From Kondoa subrosea (lineage: Eukaryota): DNA of 64,000 bases. Below are positions 44,782 to 52,165 of this stretch, piece by piece. Positions within the stretch are counted from its first letter, which is position 1; each line of letters opens with the position of its first letter. The stretch is taken from contig BCIN01000001.1 of the NCBI GenBank assembly GCA_039545335.1, positions 2,043,129 to 2,107,128 on the forward strand, given 5' to 3'. A model generated the notes under the pieces. That model had not been told where the DNA came from. It saw only the letters and a list, made by a program, of their open reading frames with translations, and made no database searches. A program made the translations under genes and the position numbers.

Positions 44782-46087
44782 ATGAATGCAGTACGTTGCC
44801 ATCTAGACTACTTGAATCCATCGTTTAACCAGTGTCATCAATCTCAGAATCTGTCCTTGAAGGAATTAATGGCACAAGCTAAAACGCTACCTCCTAAAGC
44901 TATACCTAGTCAAAAGTCAAAAGTACAAGAGCAAGAAGCAGCTCAGCAAGCTGCTTTAGCGCGTAAGAAAGAACAAGAAGCTCGAGAACGCAAAGCTAGG
45001 GAAGAGAAGAAGCGTAAAGAGTTGGAAGAGGCAGAGAGAAAGGTTCAAGAACGATTGAAAGCTCAGGAAGAGAGTAGACGAATTGCTGCTCTAGCTAGGG
45101 AAAGGGCTGAAGCACCGACTTCGTCTGGAGGATCAACCAGTTCAAAGGTTTATTTGCTGAAGCACTGCAAGGCTCGATGAGGTCTGATTAGATTTTGATG
45201 CATTGTAGGCTCAACAAGAGGCTGTCAAATCGTCTCGCTTGGAGAAGCAAAAGAACTGGAAACGCAAGCTCTTTGAAGATGACGATGATGTACCTACAAC
45301 CTATGGCGCCCGACCGAAAGCTTCTGCTTCACCAAAGAAAGCTTTACCAGGTCGCGTAGGATCATCTTCATCTACCACTGCCGCAGTCAAAGCAGTCATT
45401 GACGCTCGAGGCAAATCCACGACCGATTTGAAAGGGAAGGCAGCTTTGATTGCCAATTTCAACACGGAAGTCACAGCTATCCCTCGCGTTCACAAAGATC
45501 GTCGAACTATAGAAGAAATGGACATAGCACGAAAGAATCGTAAACTTGGTTTGATTGCTCCATCAATGTCTAGAACCGGAAGCAACGGCAGCAACGCTTC
45601 TTCTTCTAGTACTACTATACCTCAAGCCTCTACTTCTACTTCCAATGTGGCAACAAAGAAGCCTGCCGATGCTGTAAAGAAATCAATCAATGGTTTGAAT
45701 TCACTTTCCTTTAAACCTAAAGAGAATACTACCAAACCTTCACCTCAAACTTCGGTTCGAAACCTTCCCTCTCCTGCCAAGAAACGTAAAGTCCAGGTAG
45801 ACGAATATGAACAAGATGCGGAAGATGATTTCGCAGATGGATATAGACCTGGAGCGATTTATGCTTCAATGAGAAGAGGAAGAGATCTCAAACGTGGTGG
45901 TGAGATCAGTGATAGCGAGGAATATAGTAGTGACGATATGGAAGCTGGTGCTCTTGATTTGGAAATGGAGGAAAGAAGAGCGGCAAGAATCTCGAGAATG
46001 GAAGATAAAGCTGAAGAACTGAAAGAGAAGAAAGCAGCTATTGAGAAGCAGAAAAGGTTGGCTGCAGCAGGTTTCAAGAAGAAGTGA
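44782..46087 (+). CDS. SPT2: Chromatin protein Spt2-like
   Basis: Coiled-coil N-terminus, DRRTIEE, C-terminal SDDMEAGALDLEMEERRAARISRMEDKAEE motif. Confidence 0.8.
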
Positions 46088-46276
46088 AGACCAGCGTCTT
46101 GGCATATCGAAGAGAGGAAGAGGAGAAACATATTCGCACGCACGCACATCGTTTTATCATTTGTTCAGTTACATTTCATAGATAGTCTTACTTGTGCATT
46201 GCATTCATTCATATTCAGTCTGACCTCAATGAGTATTCTATGATTTCGAAGTTAGTGTCTCTTTCGACAAGCGCCA

Positions 46277-47401
46277 ATGCCAAACCCTCGCTGTTTCCTG
46301 GACATCTCGATTGGCGAGCAGCAGCTCGGAAGGTAATCATCCAGCTCAGACTCGCTGTGTACTACTAATGCTCTTCATTAGAATCGTCTTCGAATTGTTT
46401 GCAGACAAGAATCCGAGGACAGCTGAAAAGTGAGGCCTTTGATCTGGCTGTGACTGTCACAGCTCAGAGCATATGTGCAGCTTCCGATGTCTTTGTACTG
46501 GCGAGAGAGGATCATCAGCGGCAACAGGCAAACCGCTATCTTACAAAGGAGCACCACTGCATCGGATCATACCAGGCTTCATGATTCAAGGAGGTGACAC
46601 GACGCTAGGGAACGGGAAAGGAGGTGAATCTATCTATGGAGCAACATTCGAAGATGAGAACCTCGATATACCGCTCGATTCTCAAGGATTGCTTTGCATG
46701 GCTAACAGAGGACCTGATACGAACTCTTCGCAATGGTTCATTACTCTTGCTGCATGTCCACACTTAGCAGGCAAGCACGTTGTTTTCGGACGAGTAGTCT
46801 CTGGTACCTCTCTCTCTAAAACTCGCGTTGAGCCTTCTTAACTTGCTACTAGGTATGCCACTGGTGGAATCAACGCTCGCCAATGTTTCAACAGATGCTA
46901 AAGATCGACCTCTTGAGCGAGTAATCATTTCGCATTGCGGCGAGTTAGAATTGAGAAAGAAAGCGCCTGTTCCAGCTCGCAGTGCGTTGCCTTTCTTTCT
47001 GCTCTGGATATGAGGCTGATCACTTGATAGGTCCATCTCGTTCTGTATCACCTGCAAGATCAGACGCTTCTTCTTCTGCTTCATCATCACATAAGAAACG
47101 GAAACATCGCTCAAAGGACAAAAAGTCAAAAAAGAAGAAACATCGTCGATCTGCTTCACCTGCACCAAGACCAACGGAAGAAGAATTAGCTGCTGCTAGA
47201 AGACAACAAGAAGCTGCTGAAGAAGAAGAAAGGAGAATGGAAGAAGAAAGAAGGAGAGCTGAAGCGCAAAGAAAGCGAGAATTAGAGAGGATCAGAGAAC
47301 GTTTGGGTGGACAAAAGGATACTGGTGTTATTCTGAAAGGTCGTGGTACTATGAAGTATGATGACAGAGCAGGTCGGAGTGGGATGCGAGGTTGGGACTA
47401 A
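46277..47401 (+). CDS. Cyclophilin-type PPIase with basic/charged C-terminal tail
   Basis: [67 protein letters not shown]. Confidence 0.93.
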
Positions 47402-47714
47402 AGAGTCGGATCGCGATGTCGTAGCTGCTTCTAATTTGCAACAACTGCCTGTCTGTCGAATGAGCACTCGGTGTTTCGCTGCAGCAATTGCAATGGTACC
47501 GTCCTGACCATTTGAACTTCTCAGCTCGCTCGGATTGCATCCCTTACTTGACGCGTCGTATTGGGCAGCTGCGCACTGCAGGGCTACTGTTTTCGCACCA
47601 TATACGCTGACATCGATCAATACGTCGACGATGTTGTTTTCGTACAAAGTTCGTCGACGCGTTTCCTTCTCTTCCCAAACTTCCAGCTCGTGCTTGACAG
47701 TCTCTCATATAAGT

Positions 47715-49000
47715 ATGTCTAGTAGCTCTGGCTCTTCTCGCGACTCGTCCCCTCCCTCTTGCAATGAAGATATCTCCTCAGACTTGAATGGACTTCTTTT
47801 GGTGCAATTTGGTTCCGAATCCATCCTTATTCACAAGAAGTCTACTCTTCGACACACCATCGGCCTAGCGCTGTGCGAATTTGATGCACCTCCGGATGCA
47901 GATGCACGCGACTATCACTTTATCTACCAGCTGTTCGGGTTGAATGCAAGAGTAACGGAATCTGCTTTCGAAGCTTTGGTGTATGGGAAGGCGTTGAAGG
48001 TGCAATTGGTGCGAACGGCCAGCAATCGATCCAAACCTGGTCGAAAGGTCTTTCTAGCTATTGGCAAAGATTGCTCCACATCGAAGGGCAAAGCGCATAC
48101 AGCAGATTTCCACAATACGATACTCAGAAAGATCCTTCACCTGATCGAGTGGCTGCAACTGAATGTGCTTCCAATGCTTGTAGATGAAGGCTACAGCTCT
48201 CAAGTCTGTCCAAAACAAGATTGTCTGCGGTCTCCGAAGAAGGATTGGCGAGATTTTATAGATGATGAAGTTGGTACAGATTGGATAAGATCTAAGTGAG
48301 ATGGATTGGACTGTTCGAGTAAAGATGTATCTGATACATGGTACAGGATGGACAAACCGGTTTGGATCGACTCGAAGGGTGTCTGTCAAAGGGTGTTGCA
48401 GTGTGAAAACTGCTGTTGCGCTTACAATCGCGATCTATCGGCGGCCAGTAACATCGCTTTCATAGCATGGCACTGGCTGCTATGGGGTTGTCATCCCTTC
48501 AAAGGACAAAAAGGTACGCGTGTCCTTTTCAAAGTTACACCGCAGATGCATTGATCGGCCGTATTGATGATCTCTCCTCCAGGAATTTCGGCACAGAATA
48601 CTGTGCCGCCGGCGGTAAACCCGCCATCATATTGAACGGATTTCATCACTTATTGGTTACTTTTGCTGAACAAGCATTCGCATATCGCCCTTCGCTTCTT
48701 ACCTCAAGATGAATACGAGCAATCTGCACCTCTTAAAGTTGAACCGAAACCTGAAGTAGTCACGAGAGTATTTATGCTTTTCAAAGGGTTGAAGCAATTT
48801 GAGGTAGAAAGCGGAGATTGGGCAGCGGTAAGAGGGAAAGGACTGGACATGGATTGGAGATCAATAGTAGGCTTGCAAGAGTCAGCCCTCGATGAAAGCC
48901 TGTTCCGGGTACTTGAATGTGAGTCCGTTCTAAAGATATTTGGCTGCGAAAATAATTTGGTAACTGACTATTAGGGGGAGGAGTGGAGTGCTATGTGTGA
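47715..49000 (+). CDS. Chimeric gene or pseudogene: host N-terminal domain + Fanzor/TnpB-like RuvC-II/Zn-finger/RuvC-III + C-terminus of a fungal ubiquitin-associated family
   Basis: Candidate exons 47715-48295, 48347-48513, 48583-48614, 48675-48918, 48975-49000 give an open 349-aa frame; an alternative form stops at TGA 48633-48635. Confidence 0.6.
48040..48513 (+). mobile_element. Fanzor/TnpB-derived C-terminal nuclease fragment
   Basis: VFLAIG strand, LVDEGYSSQVCPKQDC, RVLQCENC, YNRDLSAASNI, W..HPF in the TnpB/Fanzor order; no RuvC-I DPG/DLG motif upstream. Confidence 0.8.
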
Positions 49001-49754
49001 GGGGCAGTTCAATATATTGATCTCCTTCGCTGCAGATTCTAAAGACAGGAAGAGAGTATAATTTGCGCTTGATTTGTATTGTCCTTCAGCAGAGACGAGG
49101 AGGAGTGAATTACTTGGTTTGGAAGATGGATGAGAAGGAGGATGGAAAAGGAATCGAAACGTTTATCACACATAGCATGCAAAGAAACACTTAGGCCCCC
49201 TTCATAAAGCCCTTGTAGTACTAAAAAGTGTGCAGCTAAATGCAGCGCCGATGAAGTCCAAACCTGCTTCACTGATTGCATGAGTCATGACTCCGAGTCG
49301 GAGTCCATCTCCTTTGCTTTCTTCCTGGTCGTCGACAGCTCGATGCGTCTACCATTAGCCTACTAGAAGGGTTGCTATCAACAACCCGTGATGTCATTGG
49401 GAGACAGCTGTTTATGCTGCAATCTGTTGGAATCTTCGTTCTGATCATTGAGTTGAAAAACGATGTTTTGCTCGCATTCGTGCTTCTTTTTCTTTTCCTG
49501 CACTGCATCCGTGCTACCATATTCTTCATACTCGATTCCCTCTGTGCTACATCTCGAAATCTGCCCTTGCCAGTCCATAGACTCGATACCGACGGTCCAT
49601 TGTTTTTCATTCTTTCATCCTGGCTTCTTCCACTCCTGCACCTCCTACTCTCGAGCACCCGGAGTTGAAAGGTCTTTCACCAAGTAGAAGTCGGCCAACT
49701 TCAGGAATTCTTGACGGTCTGATAGACTTTTCGTCACCTGATCCATCCGGACAA

Positions 49755-52165
49755 ATGGCAGCAGCAGCAGTAGTCAACAGCGGTCACATTGAGCCTCGAG
49801 CGCGCCGAGTATCTGGCGAATATCCACATAATACTATAGGCAAGCACTGCATATCATTAGATTACGAAATACAGCTTACTCCGACTTATACAGGACATTC
49901 TCAAGGAGCTAATCTCCTCAGGTCAAACCCAAACTTGTCTCGATCGCAACCAGTCTCGTCAGTACCTATGGAACGTGAACGTCGCATGTCGATCAATGAA
50001 CCATTCAACAACTTCGCTCAACGATATCCGCAAGATCCTTATCAAGTAGAACAAGAGGATGATCCTTTCCGAGAAGAGCAGCATCGGGCCGACTCCATGG
50101 AATCCAACGATCTTTCTGCTCTTGGCGATGAAGTCAGAACATATCAAGAGGGCGGAGGTCAATCTTTTCCTATGCCGCCTCATTCAAGTCAACGTCGCAA
50201 GCAATCGATCGCAAATCACGGTTTATCGGAACAAGCAGACGGACCGGACGATATCATGGATGCTGAAGCGGAAGAACGGGCGAAAAGATATGCTCAAATG
50301 TCGCCTGCCGAACAATATGCTTTGCAGGTTCGTTCAAAAGTGCTATAGACCTATAAGAATGCTGATCTGAGAAGTTGGAGCAGTCGCGTAACTATAGCGA
50401 ACAACAACAGACTCGATCGCAATCTACTGATCTCCGGACCAAGGTAATGAATTCAGCAGCTAGCAATCGTATCGCTCCCCCTGTAACTTCAGAACAAACT
50501 CGAATTGTCATCGGCATGGTTGCGCCTGCAGCTTATTCTCGAGAAGTTCTATATGATAGCAATGATGATTCGCTAGGCTCACCCTTCAAGCAAAGCAACC
50601 AATCTTTGCCTCCATCTGTTTCATACCCATCTCAACAAAACAGGAAGGAGAATACTCGCTCTCCTGCCACCACCACGGGCAGATCTCAGCAGCAGCAACA
50701 GCCACAACAGCCAGAAGAAATTTCTCGACCACCTATTACTGCTTCTGTCAAAGCTTCTAGACCCAGGAAAGTGAGCGGATCCAGCAGTTTCAGCTTAGAT
50801 GGAAGTAGTACTGGATGGTCTAAGGATGATTTGCTTGAAAGGATGGCAGAAGCATTGAAGAGGGAAAGACAGAAGAATAAAGCATATATGAGAGAACTGG
50901 TTGAGGCTGAACATGAAGTGAGTTCGACAGCCAACCTGTCTTGATACGATGCTAAGTAGTAAAACAAAGATCGATGCACTCTCTCGAATGTTGGATAACA
51001 GCAAGCAAGAAGCATCAGAAACTAATTCGAAGCATCTGCAGATCATTTCCAGCTTGCGAAGAGAACTTGAAAGAACTCGCGTGAGCCTTGAAGCAGCTCA
51101 AGATGTTGGTGCAGACGACGCCGAACGATTCTTGGATTTGCTCGAGAACCAACTGGTACCGCAGAGCAATATCTCGGGCAGACCTTCTCTGGGTCGTGCA
51201 GGAAGTCGATTTCAGGAAGAACAGGAAGCCGATACTCTGAGCATCGGAGGGAGCGTCGAAGAGCTAGCAAGTAAGAATGAAGCAGCTCTTTCACTTGGAC
51301 AGGTCGAGACTGGAGGTGTGACTGGAACAGCTCTGAAACGAAGGATGGATAGACGCAGGCGTTTAGATCAAGCGTTGAGCACGATAGCTGTGAGCTGAAG
51401 TCACCATACAAAGAAAGCTGCTGACATCTTGGTAGTCTTCTAGTCTGGCTGGTCCTGCTACTCGAGGCGATATACCTTTCCCGCCCAACAATGCGTTTGA
51501 CTCGGATGATGAGGAGCAATCTCGTCTAGGTCCATCAGAGCATAGTCTTGGTCGAGGTCCTATCTCTTCCTCGGCAGCTACGACCATAACAGTCGAAACT
51601 CAGCAAGGCAATGGTCCTTTCTCTAGCTTCTTCCGTCGTCGCTCGAACTCAGCAAGCAAAGCTCAAAGACCTGCGAATAGGCTTAGAAGAACTTCTTCAG
51701 GTCGAAGAAACTCAACCGATAATGTCACTACTGCTGAAATGATATCTGCGCCCGCTGTCCAGCAGATTGCCTCACCTGAACGAGCAGGAGGAGTCATCAA
51801 CAAAGCTAGGGCTGGAACAACTACTTCTGTTCCAGGTGCAAGGCTGTTACCTCCTACACTGAAGCTAGCTCAAGGCGAAGGGACATATGGCAGGAGGTGA
51901 GCTTTCAGATCATTGTCTTTGAAACCTACCACTGCTGATGTGCGTTGCTTGCGATTCGCAGTGCAAGCAGCGACGTGCCAAGAGGTCCGGTCACCTCACC
52001 ACCGAAAGATAGAAAGAGGAAGTCGTCCATTACTAAAATTCTGGCAATGGGTAAGCTCACTTCGTTTATGCTTAAGACTGCCAATGACCCGTGTCAATAG
52101 CTTTTCCTCGACCGGAGAAACGAGCAGACTTTGACTGGGACTCTCACGAGGCTCAGTTCCGCTGA
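49755..52165 (+). CDS. Hypothetical low-complexity/coiled-coil protein
   Basis: Long ORFs joinable by canonical introns; coiled-coil LLERMAEALKRERQKNK...LRRELER; no recognised family; start uncertain. Confidence 0.6.

Follow-up and report, generated by a model that had tools for sequence, protein, structure and literature searches.

Transposons that can carry Fanzor genes, such as Helitrons, capture fragments of host genes. Transposon fragments in genes are common, so that chimeras of this kind are already known. Cosby et al. are reported to have described, in 2021, how the capture of transposases gave rise to transcription factors in vertebrates. In bacteria, the TldR proteins are nuclease-dead TnpB repressors (Wiegand et al. 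2024, as summarized in the available portion of PMC13565253). The eukaryotic Fanzor proteins, transposon-borne RNA-guided nucleases of the TnpB family, carry a characteristic signature, in which an inert residue occupies the position of the canonical RuvC-II glutamate and the catalytic glutamate lies six residues ahead of the zinc finger (available portions of PMC10530073 and PMC13565253). In the accessible text of the literature, including PMC10530073 (Jiang 2023), PMC10711439 (Yoon 2023) and PMC13565253 (a 2026 OMEGA review), the TnpB-family exaptations named are just prokaryotic, namely Cas12 and TldR.

The locus described here, positions 47715-49000 of the window (the whole 64-kb stretch of DNA that was analysed), reads as a gene of a basidiomycete ubiquitin-like-domain family whose middle has given way, in frame, to the final third of a Fanzor gene (Table 1). 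The features listed by the first-pass annotation were all recovered, none displaced by more than one base. The chimeric gene that it proposed is real at the level of the DNA, but a new gene is not proven; the chimera is recent, as we read it, and probably non-functional. A high-copy short repeat lies just downstream of the locus, at 49087-49200.

Table 1. Features of the locus at 47715-49000, in order, followed by the two further introns proposed by the first-pass annotation
Feature	Position	Strand	Remarks
ATG and 24-residue serine-rich leader	47715..47786	+	No detectable homologue; frame open from 47508
N-terminal domain remnant, host family	47787..48014	+	Corresponds to P0036 residues 4-83
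Fanzor piece, first part	48015..48295	+	Starts at T101 (TASN...); contains the 'AIG' strand, the VDEGYSS alternative glutamate and CPKQDC, the first zinc-finger pair
Intron 1, 51 nt, GTGAGA...ACAG	48296..48346	+	The Fanzor gene's own; in-frame TGA at 48297
Fanzor piece, second part	48347..48554	+	QCENCC, NRDLSAASNI, C-terminal tail, native stop
Native Fanzor stop TGA	48552-48554	+	End of the Fanzor piece
32 nt assigned to neither parent	48555..48586	+	Read from sequence, no homology detected; pyrimidine run and CAG at 48571-48582
Host remnant FGTEYCAAGGKPAIIL	48587..48634	+	Frame differs from the other pieces; GGKPAII at 48611-48631
Deletion junction	48632..48636	.	P0036 residues 248-365 gone; +1 frameshift; in-frame TGA at 48633
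C-terminal alpha/beta subdomain remnant, host family (TDFITYW...FRVLE)	48636..48918	+	tblastn, BLASTP
Intron 4, 56 nt, GTGAGT...CTGAC...TTAG	48919..48974	+	Inherited from the host gene, as its last intron
Last exon of the host gene, (W)GGVECYV, with stop TGA at 48998-49000	48975..49000	+	The family's end
Proposed intron 2, 69 nt, GTACGC...TCCAG	48514..48582	+	Without homology support
Proposed intron 3, 60 nt, GTAAAC...ACAAG	48615..48674	+	Without support; would excise conserved coding residues

The read-through translation of 47715-48513 (P0001), with X placed at the single in-frame TGA, matched Pfam PF07282 (Cas12f1-like TNB) at 28.4 bits (E 1.8e-6), above the gathering cut-off of 26.3. A phmmer search against 1.84 billion representatives returned 32 matches at E<=0.001, nine of them at E<=1e-10 and the best at 2.7e-18, with query residues ~100-264 aligned at the very C-terminal ends of proteins 532-1336 aa long. 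Both searches bear out the Fanzor-like nature claimed for the segment. A word-based protein search with exon 1 found no match; the relatives were found by the full phmmer search. PF07282 was detected at E<=0.01 in 7 of the 16 relatives scanned, and above the cut-off in 3. The rearranged RuvC-II site is present as G117 ('LAIGKD') and E158 ('VDEGYSSQVC'), both invariant in alignment A1, all four cysteines of the TNB zinc finger are retained, and the RuvC-III aspartate is found in 'NRDLSAASNI', which aligns with the HRD/NRD..A..NI of the relatives. Every catalytic and zinc-binding residue that falls within the piece is intact, and conserved columns are kept in full (6/6 in the first part, against 17 homologues, and 12/12 in the second, against 21). 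The C-termini of P0010, P0018 and P0028 align through 48536-48548 of the tail. At intron 1, four homologous ORFs stop (P0003, P0006, P0030 and P0033), and P0018 and P0028 begin on its downstream side, at the aligned Met 48348.

The remainder of the Fanzor gene is missing. In the relatives, the RuvC-I motif (VGVDTG / VGMDAG) lies ~125 residues upstream of the point where homology begins in the window, and the RuvC-I aspartate was not found: a profile of the upstream Fanzor region gave no match to residues 1-109 even at E<=100. The WED and REC domains are lacking as well, the sequence upstream of 48015 being host family and not Fanzor as judged by the profile search. Because RuvC-I, WED and REC are missing, the piece cannot be a nuclease. 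No further Fanzor piece was found by tblastn elsewhere in the 64-kb window. For the guide (omega) RNA gene, no Rfam match was obtained in 47000-50000, and the gap from the Fanzor stop to host sequence is just 32 nt. The fold was modelled on the relative P0014 (not on the fragment itself), with a mean pLDDT of 70.4; within the RuvC region (about 140-440), the majority of 10-residue blocks scored 75-96. Foldseek matched this model best to solved Fanzors, namely Fanzor2 9b0l (E 1.5e-5) and SpuFz 9ceu (E 2.8e-5), and 17 of 17 matches at E<=0.001 were Fanzor, TnpB or Cas12 chains. When P0004 and alignment A1 were searched against PDB sequences, no match fell below E 0.07, the solved Fanzors being distant by sequence from the clade of the piece.

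Both flanks of the Fanzor piece come from a single basidiomycete family that usually carries ubiquitin-like domains, and the motifs given for it in the first-pass annotation proved correct by BLASTP, tblastn and phmmer. Members of this family, such as P0036, P0040 (Mycena metata) and P0046 (Ceratobasidium), are laid out as an N-terminal domain, a coiled region, a ubiquitin-like domain ending in GG and a C-terminal domain. The family is multi-copy, with several members sharing one contig in some genomes; it is widespread, large and tandemly expanded, but unstudied and unnamed. The ubiquitin-like domain (PF00240 / PF11976) was found in P0036 (residues 166-238) and in P0040, and no translated piece of the locus matched it. 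The C-terminal domain spans ~240 residues, from the nearly invariant GGKP to EWGGMEV, and comprises a beta-sandwich and an alpha/beta part; it has no Pfam model, and comparison of its predicted structure with the PDB gave no Foldseek match at E<=0.001, the best VIA-align Z of 4.3 being to generic beta-sandwiches. In the family, the GG end of the ubiquitin-like domain directly precedes this confidently predicted domain without a solved relative.

The N-terminal remnant (47787-48014) matched P0036 by BLASTP at E 2e-7, and tblastn of P0036 against the whole window recovered the N-terminal region at E 9e-6. When 73 family N-termini were searched by phmmer, P0036 (5.7e-7) and P0051 (2.4e-5) matched and the other 71 lay at E>=0.059; the domain present is that of the P0036/P0051 subgroup, 2 of the 73 matching at E<1e-3. 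The N-terminal part is therefore unrelated to Fanzor, as had been claimed, since the profile search was negative and P0036 and P0051 match. That it is instead decayed Fanzor was suggested by MAFFT and gapped tblastn and was ruled out by the profile test and the host matches. In gapped tblastn, four Fanzor relatives extended upstream of 48015 (P0008 to 47799, P0002 to 47916, P0029 to 47931 and P0006 to 47949); these extensions are read as artefacts because the profile test failed and host relatives match significantly. Three other candidate matches were discarded. The only database match of the leader, to the EF-hand repeat protein P0013, was repeat-inflated, with per-repeat tblastn E values of 0.027-0.5, and was taken to be spurious. 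The metagenome locus L001, from a scan with exon 1, shared 42 residues around RDYHFIYQ, has 57% G+C and bacterial-looking ORFs, matches neither the host family nor Fanzor, and was attributed to chance. An Atlas search with P0041 returned just unnamed bacterial clusters at 0.90-0.91 and was set aside.

Downstream of the Fanzor piece, the small host remnant matched P0051 residues 265-281 by BLASTP with 11/18 identical residues (E 0.041) and P0036 240-247 at E 0.29; the family match would be weak alone, yet the remnant is collinear with the other host pieces. GGKPAII does occur in another frame, one base from the 48610-48630 first given for it. The C-terminal piece from 48636 was matched by 12 of 12 family proteins in tblastn (E 2.9e-19 to 5.8e-34) and by P0036 at 62% identity (E 4e-37), and the cited string TDFITYW...RVLEWGGVE is real, with 12 homologues at 46-64% identity, several of which carry ubiquitin/Rad60-SLD domains. 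It keeps 29 of 32 near-invariant family columns; at least three mismatches at such columns are also seen in 9 of 71 annotated family members. The C-terminal domain is incomplete at the locus, which holds just GGKPAII and then residues ~142-243 of 243. The cut at ~142 falls midway through helix 138-152, and the subdomain to which this helix belongs has also lost strand 116-119 and helix 120-133. Splicing of intron 4 recreates the family's end, EWGGxEV, and P0034 and P0035 read through at this point (...RVLEC...). No paralogues of the pieces, and none of the missing host or Fanzor parts, were found elsewhere in the 64-kb window.

Both breakpoints could be mapped, with an uncertainty of a codon or a few tens of bases. 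Between 48014 and 48015 the host N-terminal domain passes in frame into the Fanzor piece, confirming the claim of an in-frame junction with unrelated upstream sequence, and the Fanzor piece stands in place of ~155 family residues including the ubiquitin-like domain, so that the proposed replacement of the middle of the host gene also held. A second loss, of ~118 family residues (P0036 248-365: the beta-sandwich and the alpha/beta start), comes right after GGKPAII and brings a +1 frameshift between GGKPAII and TDFITYW. Frame 0 of 47715-49000 has four stops, of which two fall in inherited introns, one is native to the Fanzor gene and another sits at the deletion junction. No frameshift or stop was found within any retained piece, nor any small lesion in the ~1,080 nt of retained coding sequence. 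Codon usage scores of the pieces (0.075, 0.033, -0.135 and 0.119) are below that of host genes (0.199 ± 0.078), and the Fanzor exons are unlike host genes.

The four GT-AG introns proposed earlier do yield an open frame of 349 aa. Homology supports introns 1 and 4; introns 2 and 3 are ad hoc and lack such support. Homologues read straight through the 5' part of intron 2 as Fanzor tail; its acceptor, a pyrimidine run and CAG (48571-48582), would be credible, and intron 2 used alone gives a 266-aa product ending at 48633. Intron 3 would excise GGKPAII and DFITYWLLLLNK, the very motifs cited as evidence in the first reading, and so remove the family-conserved coding residues GKPAII and TDFITYWLLLLNK; in P0034, GGKP...FRVLE is a single uninterrupted ORF. 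A further 71 single GT-AG introns would likewise link the Fanzor exon with the C-terminal frame and leave no stop between them, and the open 349-aa frame is therefore not special. The splice-site consensus derived from uniquely solvable ORF pairs (13 rows, 12 distinct) was visibly noisy, so splice-site strength carries no argument. The exon-1 frame is open over 194 codons, and a putative host promoter may still drive a transcript. The sole homology-supported frame ends at the Fanzor stop, with a predicted product of 262 aa in which RuvC-II, the zinc finger and RuvC-III of Fanzor would follow the host N-domain; the C-terminal host piece would in that case stay untranslated.

The DNA is continuous across all junctions, which are crossed by independently built contigs with 0 differences. 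In run X1, one 51,072-nt contig spans 46800-49116 without a difference and at a flat depth of 144.5; in run X2, two contigs (46800-48349 and 48320-49116) bridge the junctions, the break between them being an adapter end. An assembly chimera, in which reads of a Fanzor copy were wrongly joined to reads of a family gene, is extremely improbable given this coverage and even depth; nothing was found in its favour, except that runs X1 and X2 probably come from the assembly's own sample, so that the check is not fully independent. Over 46800-49021 the depth stays level at single copy, with no repeated left end or second copy, no terminal inverted or direct repeats bounding the unit 47715-49000 were found, and repeat, tRNA and Rfam searches around the locus gave nothing relevant. 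These observations bear on the suggestion that a Fanzor-carrying transposon, Helitron-like for example, took host gene fragments, with 47715-49000 as its cargo, inserted between the cyclophilin gene (which ends at 47401) and the neighbouring gene (from ~49600). Fanzor1 genes are reported within transposons, including Helitrons (available portions of PMC10530073 and PMC13565253), and the multi-copy host family and the short repeat at 49087-49200 would also suit such a capture. We nevertheless regard it as very unlikely, because the host pieces keep their order and a single orientation all the way from the start codon, by way of the native last intron, to the native stop, as a resident gene would, and because the unit is single-copy without terminal repeats, the Fanzor gene is itself truncated and no other Fanzor or family piece lies in the 64-kb window.

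Domestication by domain shuffling had been suggested as well; the evidence gives it no support. In this case a young functional fusion gene would have arisen by exaptation, the host promoter and N-terminal domain deploying a nuclease-dead Fanzor module. This module would consist of the RuvC-II strand, the RuvC-III helix and the TNB zinc finger, the last of which would bind nucleic acid. The product would be either 262 aa, to the Fanzor stop, or 349 aa, by way of two new introns that bring the C-terminal piece of the host back into the protein. Much about the locus agrees with such a gene: the in-frame N-terminal junction, the retained start codon, native last intron and stop, the open 194-codon frame of exon 1, the 18 of 18 Fanzor columns kept (including the four cysteines, the alternative glutamate and the RuvC-III aspartate), the 29 of 32 host columns, pieces free of frameshifts and stops, intact inherited introns 1 and 4, the pyrimidine-rich CAG acceptor at 48582, and a single copy, which places the locus outside any proliferating family. 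Each of these features is, however, equally expected of a very recent wreck. Both domains are truncated at places that disrupt their folds, intron 3 is unsupported and would strip conserved codons, there are 71 alternative introns, the Fanzor exons differ from host genes in codon usage, and none of the 32 phmmer matches among the 1.84 billion protein representatives extends over the host N-domain as well as the Fanzor part. We consider exaptation possible but rather unlikely, and similarly doubt that the locus is an expressed host-Fanzor fusion gene under a host promoter, possibly with two newly made introns.

On balance, it is reasonably likely that the locus is a young, single-copy, nuclease-dead relic of a family paralogue that was hit by a Fanzor-bearing element. 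The order of events that we infer would start from a resident paralogue of the multi-copy basidiomycete family, into which a Fanzor-bearing element would have inserted in the same orientation. One deletion would then have taken host residue ~84 through the middle of the Fanzor gene, and a second would have cost the host gene a further 118 residues, with a shift of frame at 48632-48636; or else the whole arrangement may stem from one complex break repair. Recency is suggested because 18 of 18 Fanzor columns and 29 of 32 host columns are intact and frame 0 has just four stops. A multi-copy family whose members share contigs is a setting in which dead paralogues are expected. That small lesions are absent although the locus went through two or more large rearrangements would be expected under selection no less than from youth.

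As an example of its kind the locus is unusually clean, with both parents identified, the breakpoints mapped and every retained piece intact, and it captures the stage where a fusion will either die or be recruited. If transcribed, it would show a route of Fanzor modules into host proteins, and an expressed fusion, if true, would mark the first report of a eukaryote exapting a fragment of the TnpB family. If not transcribed, it is a well-dated relic of intron-bearing Fanzor elements recently active in a compact basidiomycete genome. The clade of the Fanzor piece might already figure in the supplementary Fanzor catalogues of Jiang 2023 (PMC10530073). The locus also makes the host family worth noticing, a large and tandemly expanded one that has no name.

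Compared with Fanzors, as represented by SpuFz (8gkh/9ceu) and ApmFz2 (9b0l) and in so far as the available portions of their descriptions extend, the piece has the same RuvC-II glycine and the E158-x6-C165 arrangement. It further shares with Fanzors the CxxxxC...CxxC zinc finger, the RuvC-III 'RD..A..NI' and a spliceosomal intron. It differs in keeping the last ~165 residues only, with RuvC-I, WED and REC absent, and in lacking transposon ends, a partner transposase or room for a guide RNA gene (32 nt). As with members of the basidiomycete ubiquitin-like family, the locus has, in collinear order, the N-terminal domain, GGKP, the C-terminal piece, the last intron and the EWGGxEV end, whereas Fanzor stands in place of the coiled region and ubiquitin-like domain (~155 residues), the beta-sandwich and alpha/beta start (118 residues) are gone and the frame is shifted. 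Host-transposase fusions and TldR retain a complete folding domain and are both transcribed and conserved under selection; the module at this locus is a partial RuvC domain. In common with both, a transposon nucleic-acid-binding module has come to lie in frame with host coding sequence, its nuclease lost.

For the central piece of the locus, translation of positions 47715–48513 with the single TGA read as X scored 28.4 bits (E = 1.8e-6) against the Pfam Cas12f1-like TNB domain (PF07282; cut-off, 26.3 bits). A phmmer search of 1.84 billion representative proteins returned 32 matches at E ≤ 0.001, nine of them at E ≤ 1e-10, in which query residues ~100–264 aligned with the extreme ends of long proteins, including P0002 (532 aa, E = 2.7e-18), P0004 (806 aa), P0005 (1336 aa), and P0008 (921 aa). 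Of these 32 proteins, 31 matched the window by tblastn solely within 47799–48605, all in the same frame; the exception, P0013, is a bacterial-looking EF-hand repeat protein, which phmmer had aligned with the leader and beginning of the N-domain (47745–47900) at E = 2.4e-7. That match was inflated by four repeats (single repeats gave E = 0.027–0.5 by tblastn) and is probably chance plus repetition. Within the piece, glycine G117 of LAIGKD sits at the canonical RuvC-II position, glutamate E158 (VDEGYSSQVC) lies six residues ahead of the first zinc-finger cysteine, and two cysteine pairs and the RuvC-III motif NRDLSAASNI are present. The rearranged glutamate is a published Fanzor hallmark (PMC10530073, PMC13565253). 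All 18 columns conserved among relatives are kept: 6 from a set of 17 homologues and 12 from a set of 21. By sequence, the clade lies far from any protein of solved structure. An AlphaFold model of the relative P0014 (mean pLDDT 70.4; RuvC region mostly 75–96) gave Fanzor2 9b0l (E = 1.5e-5) and SpuFz 9ceu (E = 2.8e-5) as best structure matches, and all 17 matches at E ≤ 0.001 were Fanzor, TnpB, or Cas12 chains.

Four homologous ORFs end at window 48293–48296 (P0003, a Fanzor relative, ends ...WIRSK, as the window does) and two others begin at a Met corresponding to 48348; intron 1 of the four introns proposed by the first-pass annotation is thus inherited from Fanzor. Relatives terminate 6–14 residues past an HPF/HPW motif, and the window read-through GTRVLFKVT has aligned counterparts in the P0010, P0018, and P0028 tails, which identifies the TGA in this region as the native Fanzor stop. 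With an inherited intron and a native stop, the piece derives at DNA level from a eukaryotic Fanzor gene and extends to the natural end of that gene. Relatives carry a RuvC-I motif (VGVDTG or similar) ~125 residues upstream of the match start, and a profile of the upstream Fanzor region found no match in window residues 1–109; as everything upstream is missing, RuvC-I included, the piece cannot be a nuclease. Two of the relatives, P0002 and P0005, have long N-terminal regions absent from the others, containing VVLSSDTDFLV and VVISNDSDYAFV, which we take to be reminiscent of PIN/XPG-type nuclease motifs. The TNB domain is the sole Pfam match of both at E ≤ 0.01, and P0002 is unaligned at the RuvC-I motif.

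The ORF at 48636–48974 has 12 homologues (46–64% identity over 82–93% of its length), all Agaricomycetes hypothetical proteins, several with ubiquitin (PF00240) or Rad60-SLD (PF11976) domains. With P0036, an intact relative of 462 aa, as query, 333 Agaricomycetes and Microbotryomycetes proteins were retrieved at E ≤ 1e-5, often annotated as "ubiquitin-like domain-containing protein"; several genomes carry multiple family members on one contig. The motifs named in the first-pass annotation (GGKPVIYL, FITYWLP, HIALRFL, VVTRVFMLF, and RVLEWGG) all occur in this family. Window residues 25–87 match P0036 residues 4–64 (E = 2e-7), tblastn of P0036 against the whole window gave an N-terminal match at E = 9e-6, and a second family member, P0051, matched the N-terminal part at E = 2.4e-5; the remaining 71 of 73 family N-termini gave E = 0.059 or weaker. 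Together with the 12 C-terminal homologues, the P0036 and P0051 matches bear out the proposal that both flanks come from one host ubiquitin-like family.

Splicing of intron 4 (GTGAGT...CTGAC...TTAG) restores the family end EWGGxEV, and the host-family relatives P0034 and P0035 are uninterrupted at this position; this intron and the final stop are the host gene's own. Near-invariant host columns are kept at 29 of 32 positions, and the three mismatches (P→L, D→E, and M→V) lie towards the high end of the family range, 9 of 71 members having at least three. A model of the family C-terminal domain (pLDDT 95.2) comprises a beta-sandwich (residues 6–79) and an alpha/beta part (116–241), and the window retains this domain from ~residue 142 only, beginning mid-helix. 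The family itself (P0036–P0160 among relatives of 48636–49000) is large and unnamed. The terminal GG of its ubiquitin-like domain immediately precedes KP(V/I)IYL, an arrangement that would resemble a ubiquitin-fusion cleavage site; the 240-residue domain after the GG has neither a Pfam model nor a solved relative.

Positions of features in and around the chimeric locus
Feature	Position	Remarks
SPT2 chromatin protein gene and cyclophilin gene	45209–47401	
SPT2 chromatin protein gene	upstream of cyclophilin gene	PF08243, E = 4.4e-10
Cyclophilin gene, basic serine-rich tail	stop 47399–47401	upstream neighbour; PF00160, E = 8e-29
ATG	47715	
Left junction	48014|48015	
Intron 1 (proposed)	48296–48346	
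Intron 2 (proposed)	48514–48582	
Fanzor stop	48552–48554	TGA
Hairpin	48590–48607	perfect, 7 bp
Intron 3 (proposed)	48615–48674	
Intron 4 (proposed)	48919–48974	
Final stop, of host gene	48998–49000	
Repeated sequence	49087–49200	just downstream of locus
Next gene	from about 49600	downstream, same strand

Host similarity ends at ...KVQLVR (R100) and Fanzor similarity begins at TASN (T101), as in P0003 (GTASNLSQPDRQIVFAIG), which fixes the left junction. The Fanzor stop is followed by 32 bases matching neither parent and then, in another reading frame, by FGTEYCAAGGKPAIIL, which aligns with residues 265–281 of P0051 (11 of 18 identical, E = 0.041) and 240–247 of P0036 (E = 0.29); the match is weak alone yet collinear with the other host pieces, and FGTEYCAAGGKPAIIL is taken as a host remnant. 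TDFITYW (P0036 residue 366) starts one codon later, with the first frame resumed. P0036 residues 4–83, about 240–247, and 366–462 are kept in the window. In place of ~155 residues (the coiled region and ubiquitin-like domain) stand 540 nt of Fanzor sequence, and a further 118 residues are lost at a junction marked by a TGA and a +1 frameshift. The hairpin (GGCACAG-AATA-CTGTGCC) follows the Fanzor stop and precedes the GGKP codons, within a stretch resembling P0051.

Contigs were built separately from two public runs, probably of the same sample as the assembly and so not fully independent: in run one, a 51-kb contig spans 46800–49116 with zero differences and a flat depth of 144.5, and in run two, two contigs bridge all junctions at a depth of about 53. 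With all junctions covered in this way, an assembly artefact is extremely improbable. The flat depth indicates no near-identical Fanzor copy elsewhere in that genome. The locus occupies a 2.2-kb space between two genes in gene-dense fungal DNA (window G+C, 45.8%), and its upstream neighbours are ordinary housekeeping genes, which places it outside a transposon-rich region; the cyclophilin gene is interrupted by two or more short introns and encodes a tail rich in lysine, arginine, and serine. The short sequence just downstream is present at high copy number in the source genome: there, the summed depth of contigs climbs from ~144 to 512–3588 in run one and from ~52 to 178–665 in run two, and contigs branch and break. 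Neither a second copy across the 64-kb window nor a tRNA at this position was found, and the sequence could represent either a small dispersed element or the end of a transposon.

We lean towards reading the locus as a recent, non-functional relic. A Fanzor element would have disrupted a ubiquitin-like family paralogue resident at this site, and deletion or complex repair would have removed all of the Fanzor gene but its last third, now in frame after the N-terminal domain of the host protein. The absence of small lesions despite two or more large rearrangements suggests one complex event, or events close in time. That a transposon instead captured host fragments is very improbable, as the pieces run collinearly from the start codon through to the stop codon, and the unit is single copy and has no terminal repeats.

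An expressed fusion gene is better placed, but we still regard it as unlikely. One reading frame holds nearly all pieces, with only four stops between the ATG and 49000 (48297, 48552, 48633, and 48972), and the four GT–AG introns of the first-pass annotation do remove all of them, opening a 349-aa product. The in-frame left junction, the start codon, the intact last intron, the good-looking acceptor at 48582, the conserved residues intact in all pieces, and ~1,080 nt without small lesions speak for a live fusion, but a young age accounts equally well for how intact the pieces are. Homology supports introns 1 and 4 only: the 5' part of intron 2 is Fanzor tail in relatives, and intron 3 would excise the conserved coding residues GKPAII and TDFITYWLLLLNK, a region that in P0034 forms a single uninterrupted ORF with the remainder of the domain. 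An open frame after intron choice is expected by chance, as 71 different single GT–AG introns also leave the reading frame open from the Fanzor exon to the C-terminal ORF of the host. Both domains are cut where their folds require absent parts, and none of the 32 database matches joins host and Fanzor parts. Codon-usage values for the host pieces (0.075 and 0.119) and Fanzor exons (0.033 and -0.135) are all below those of the 19 long ORFs of the window used as reference (0.199 ± 0.078). The sole fusion product with homology support would terminate at the Fanzor stop and have 262 aa.

The literature searched contained no description of a eukaryotic gene that arose from a Fanzor fragment, and the TnpB-family exaptations named there, Cas12 and TldR, are prokaryotic. 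A fusion that was truly expressed and conserved would be new; the chimera as it stands is a new example of a kind already known.
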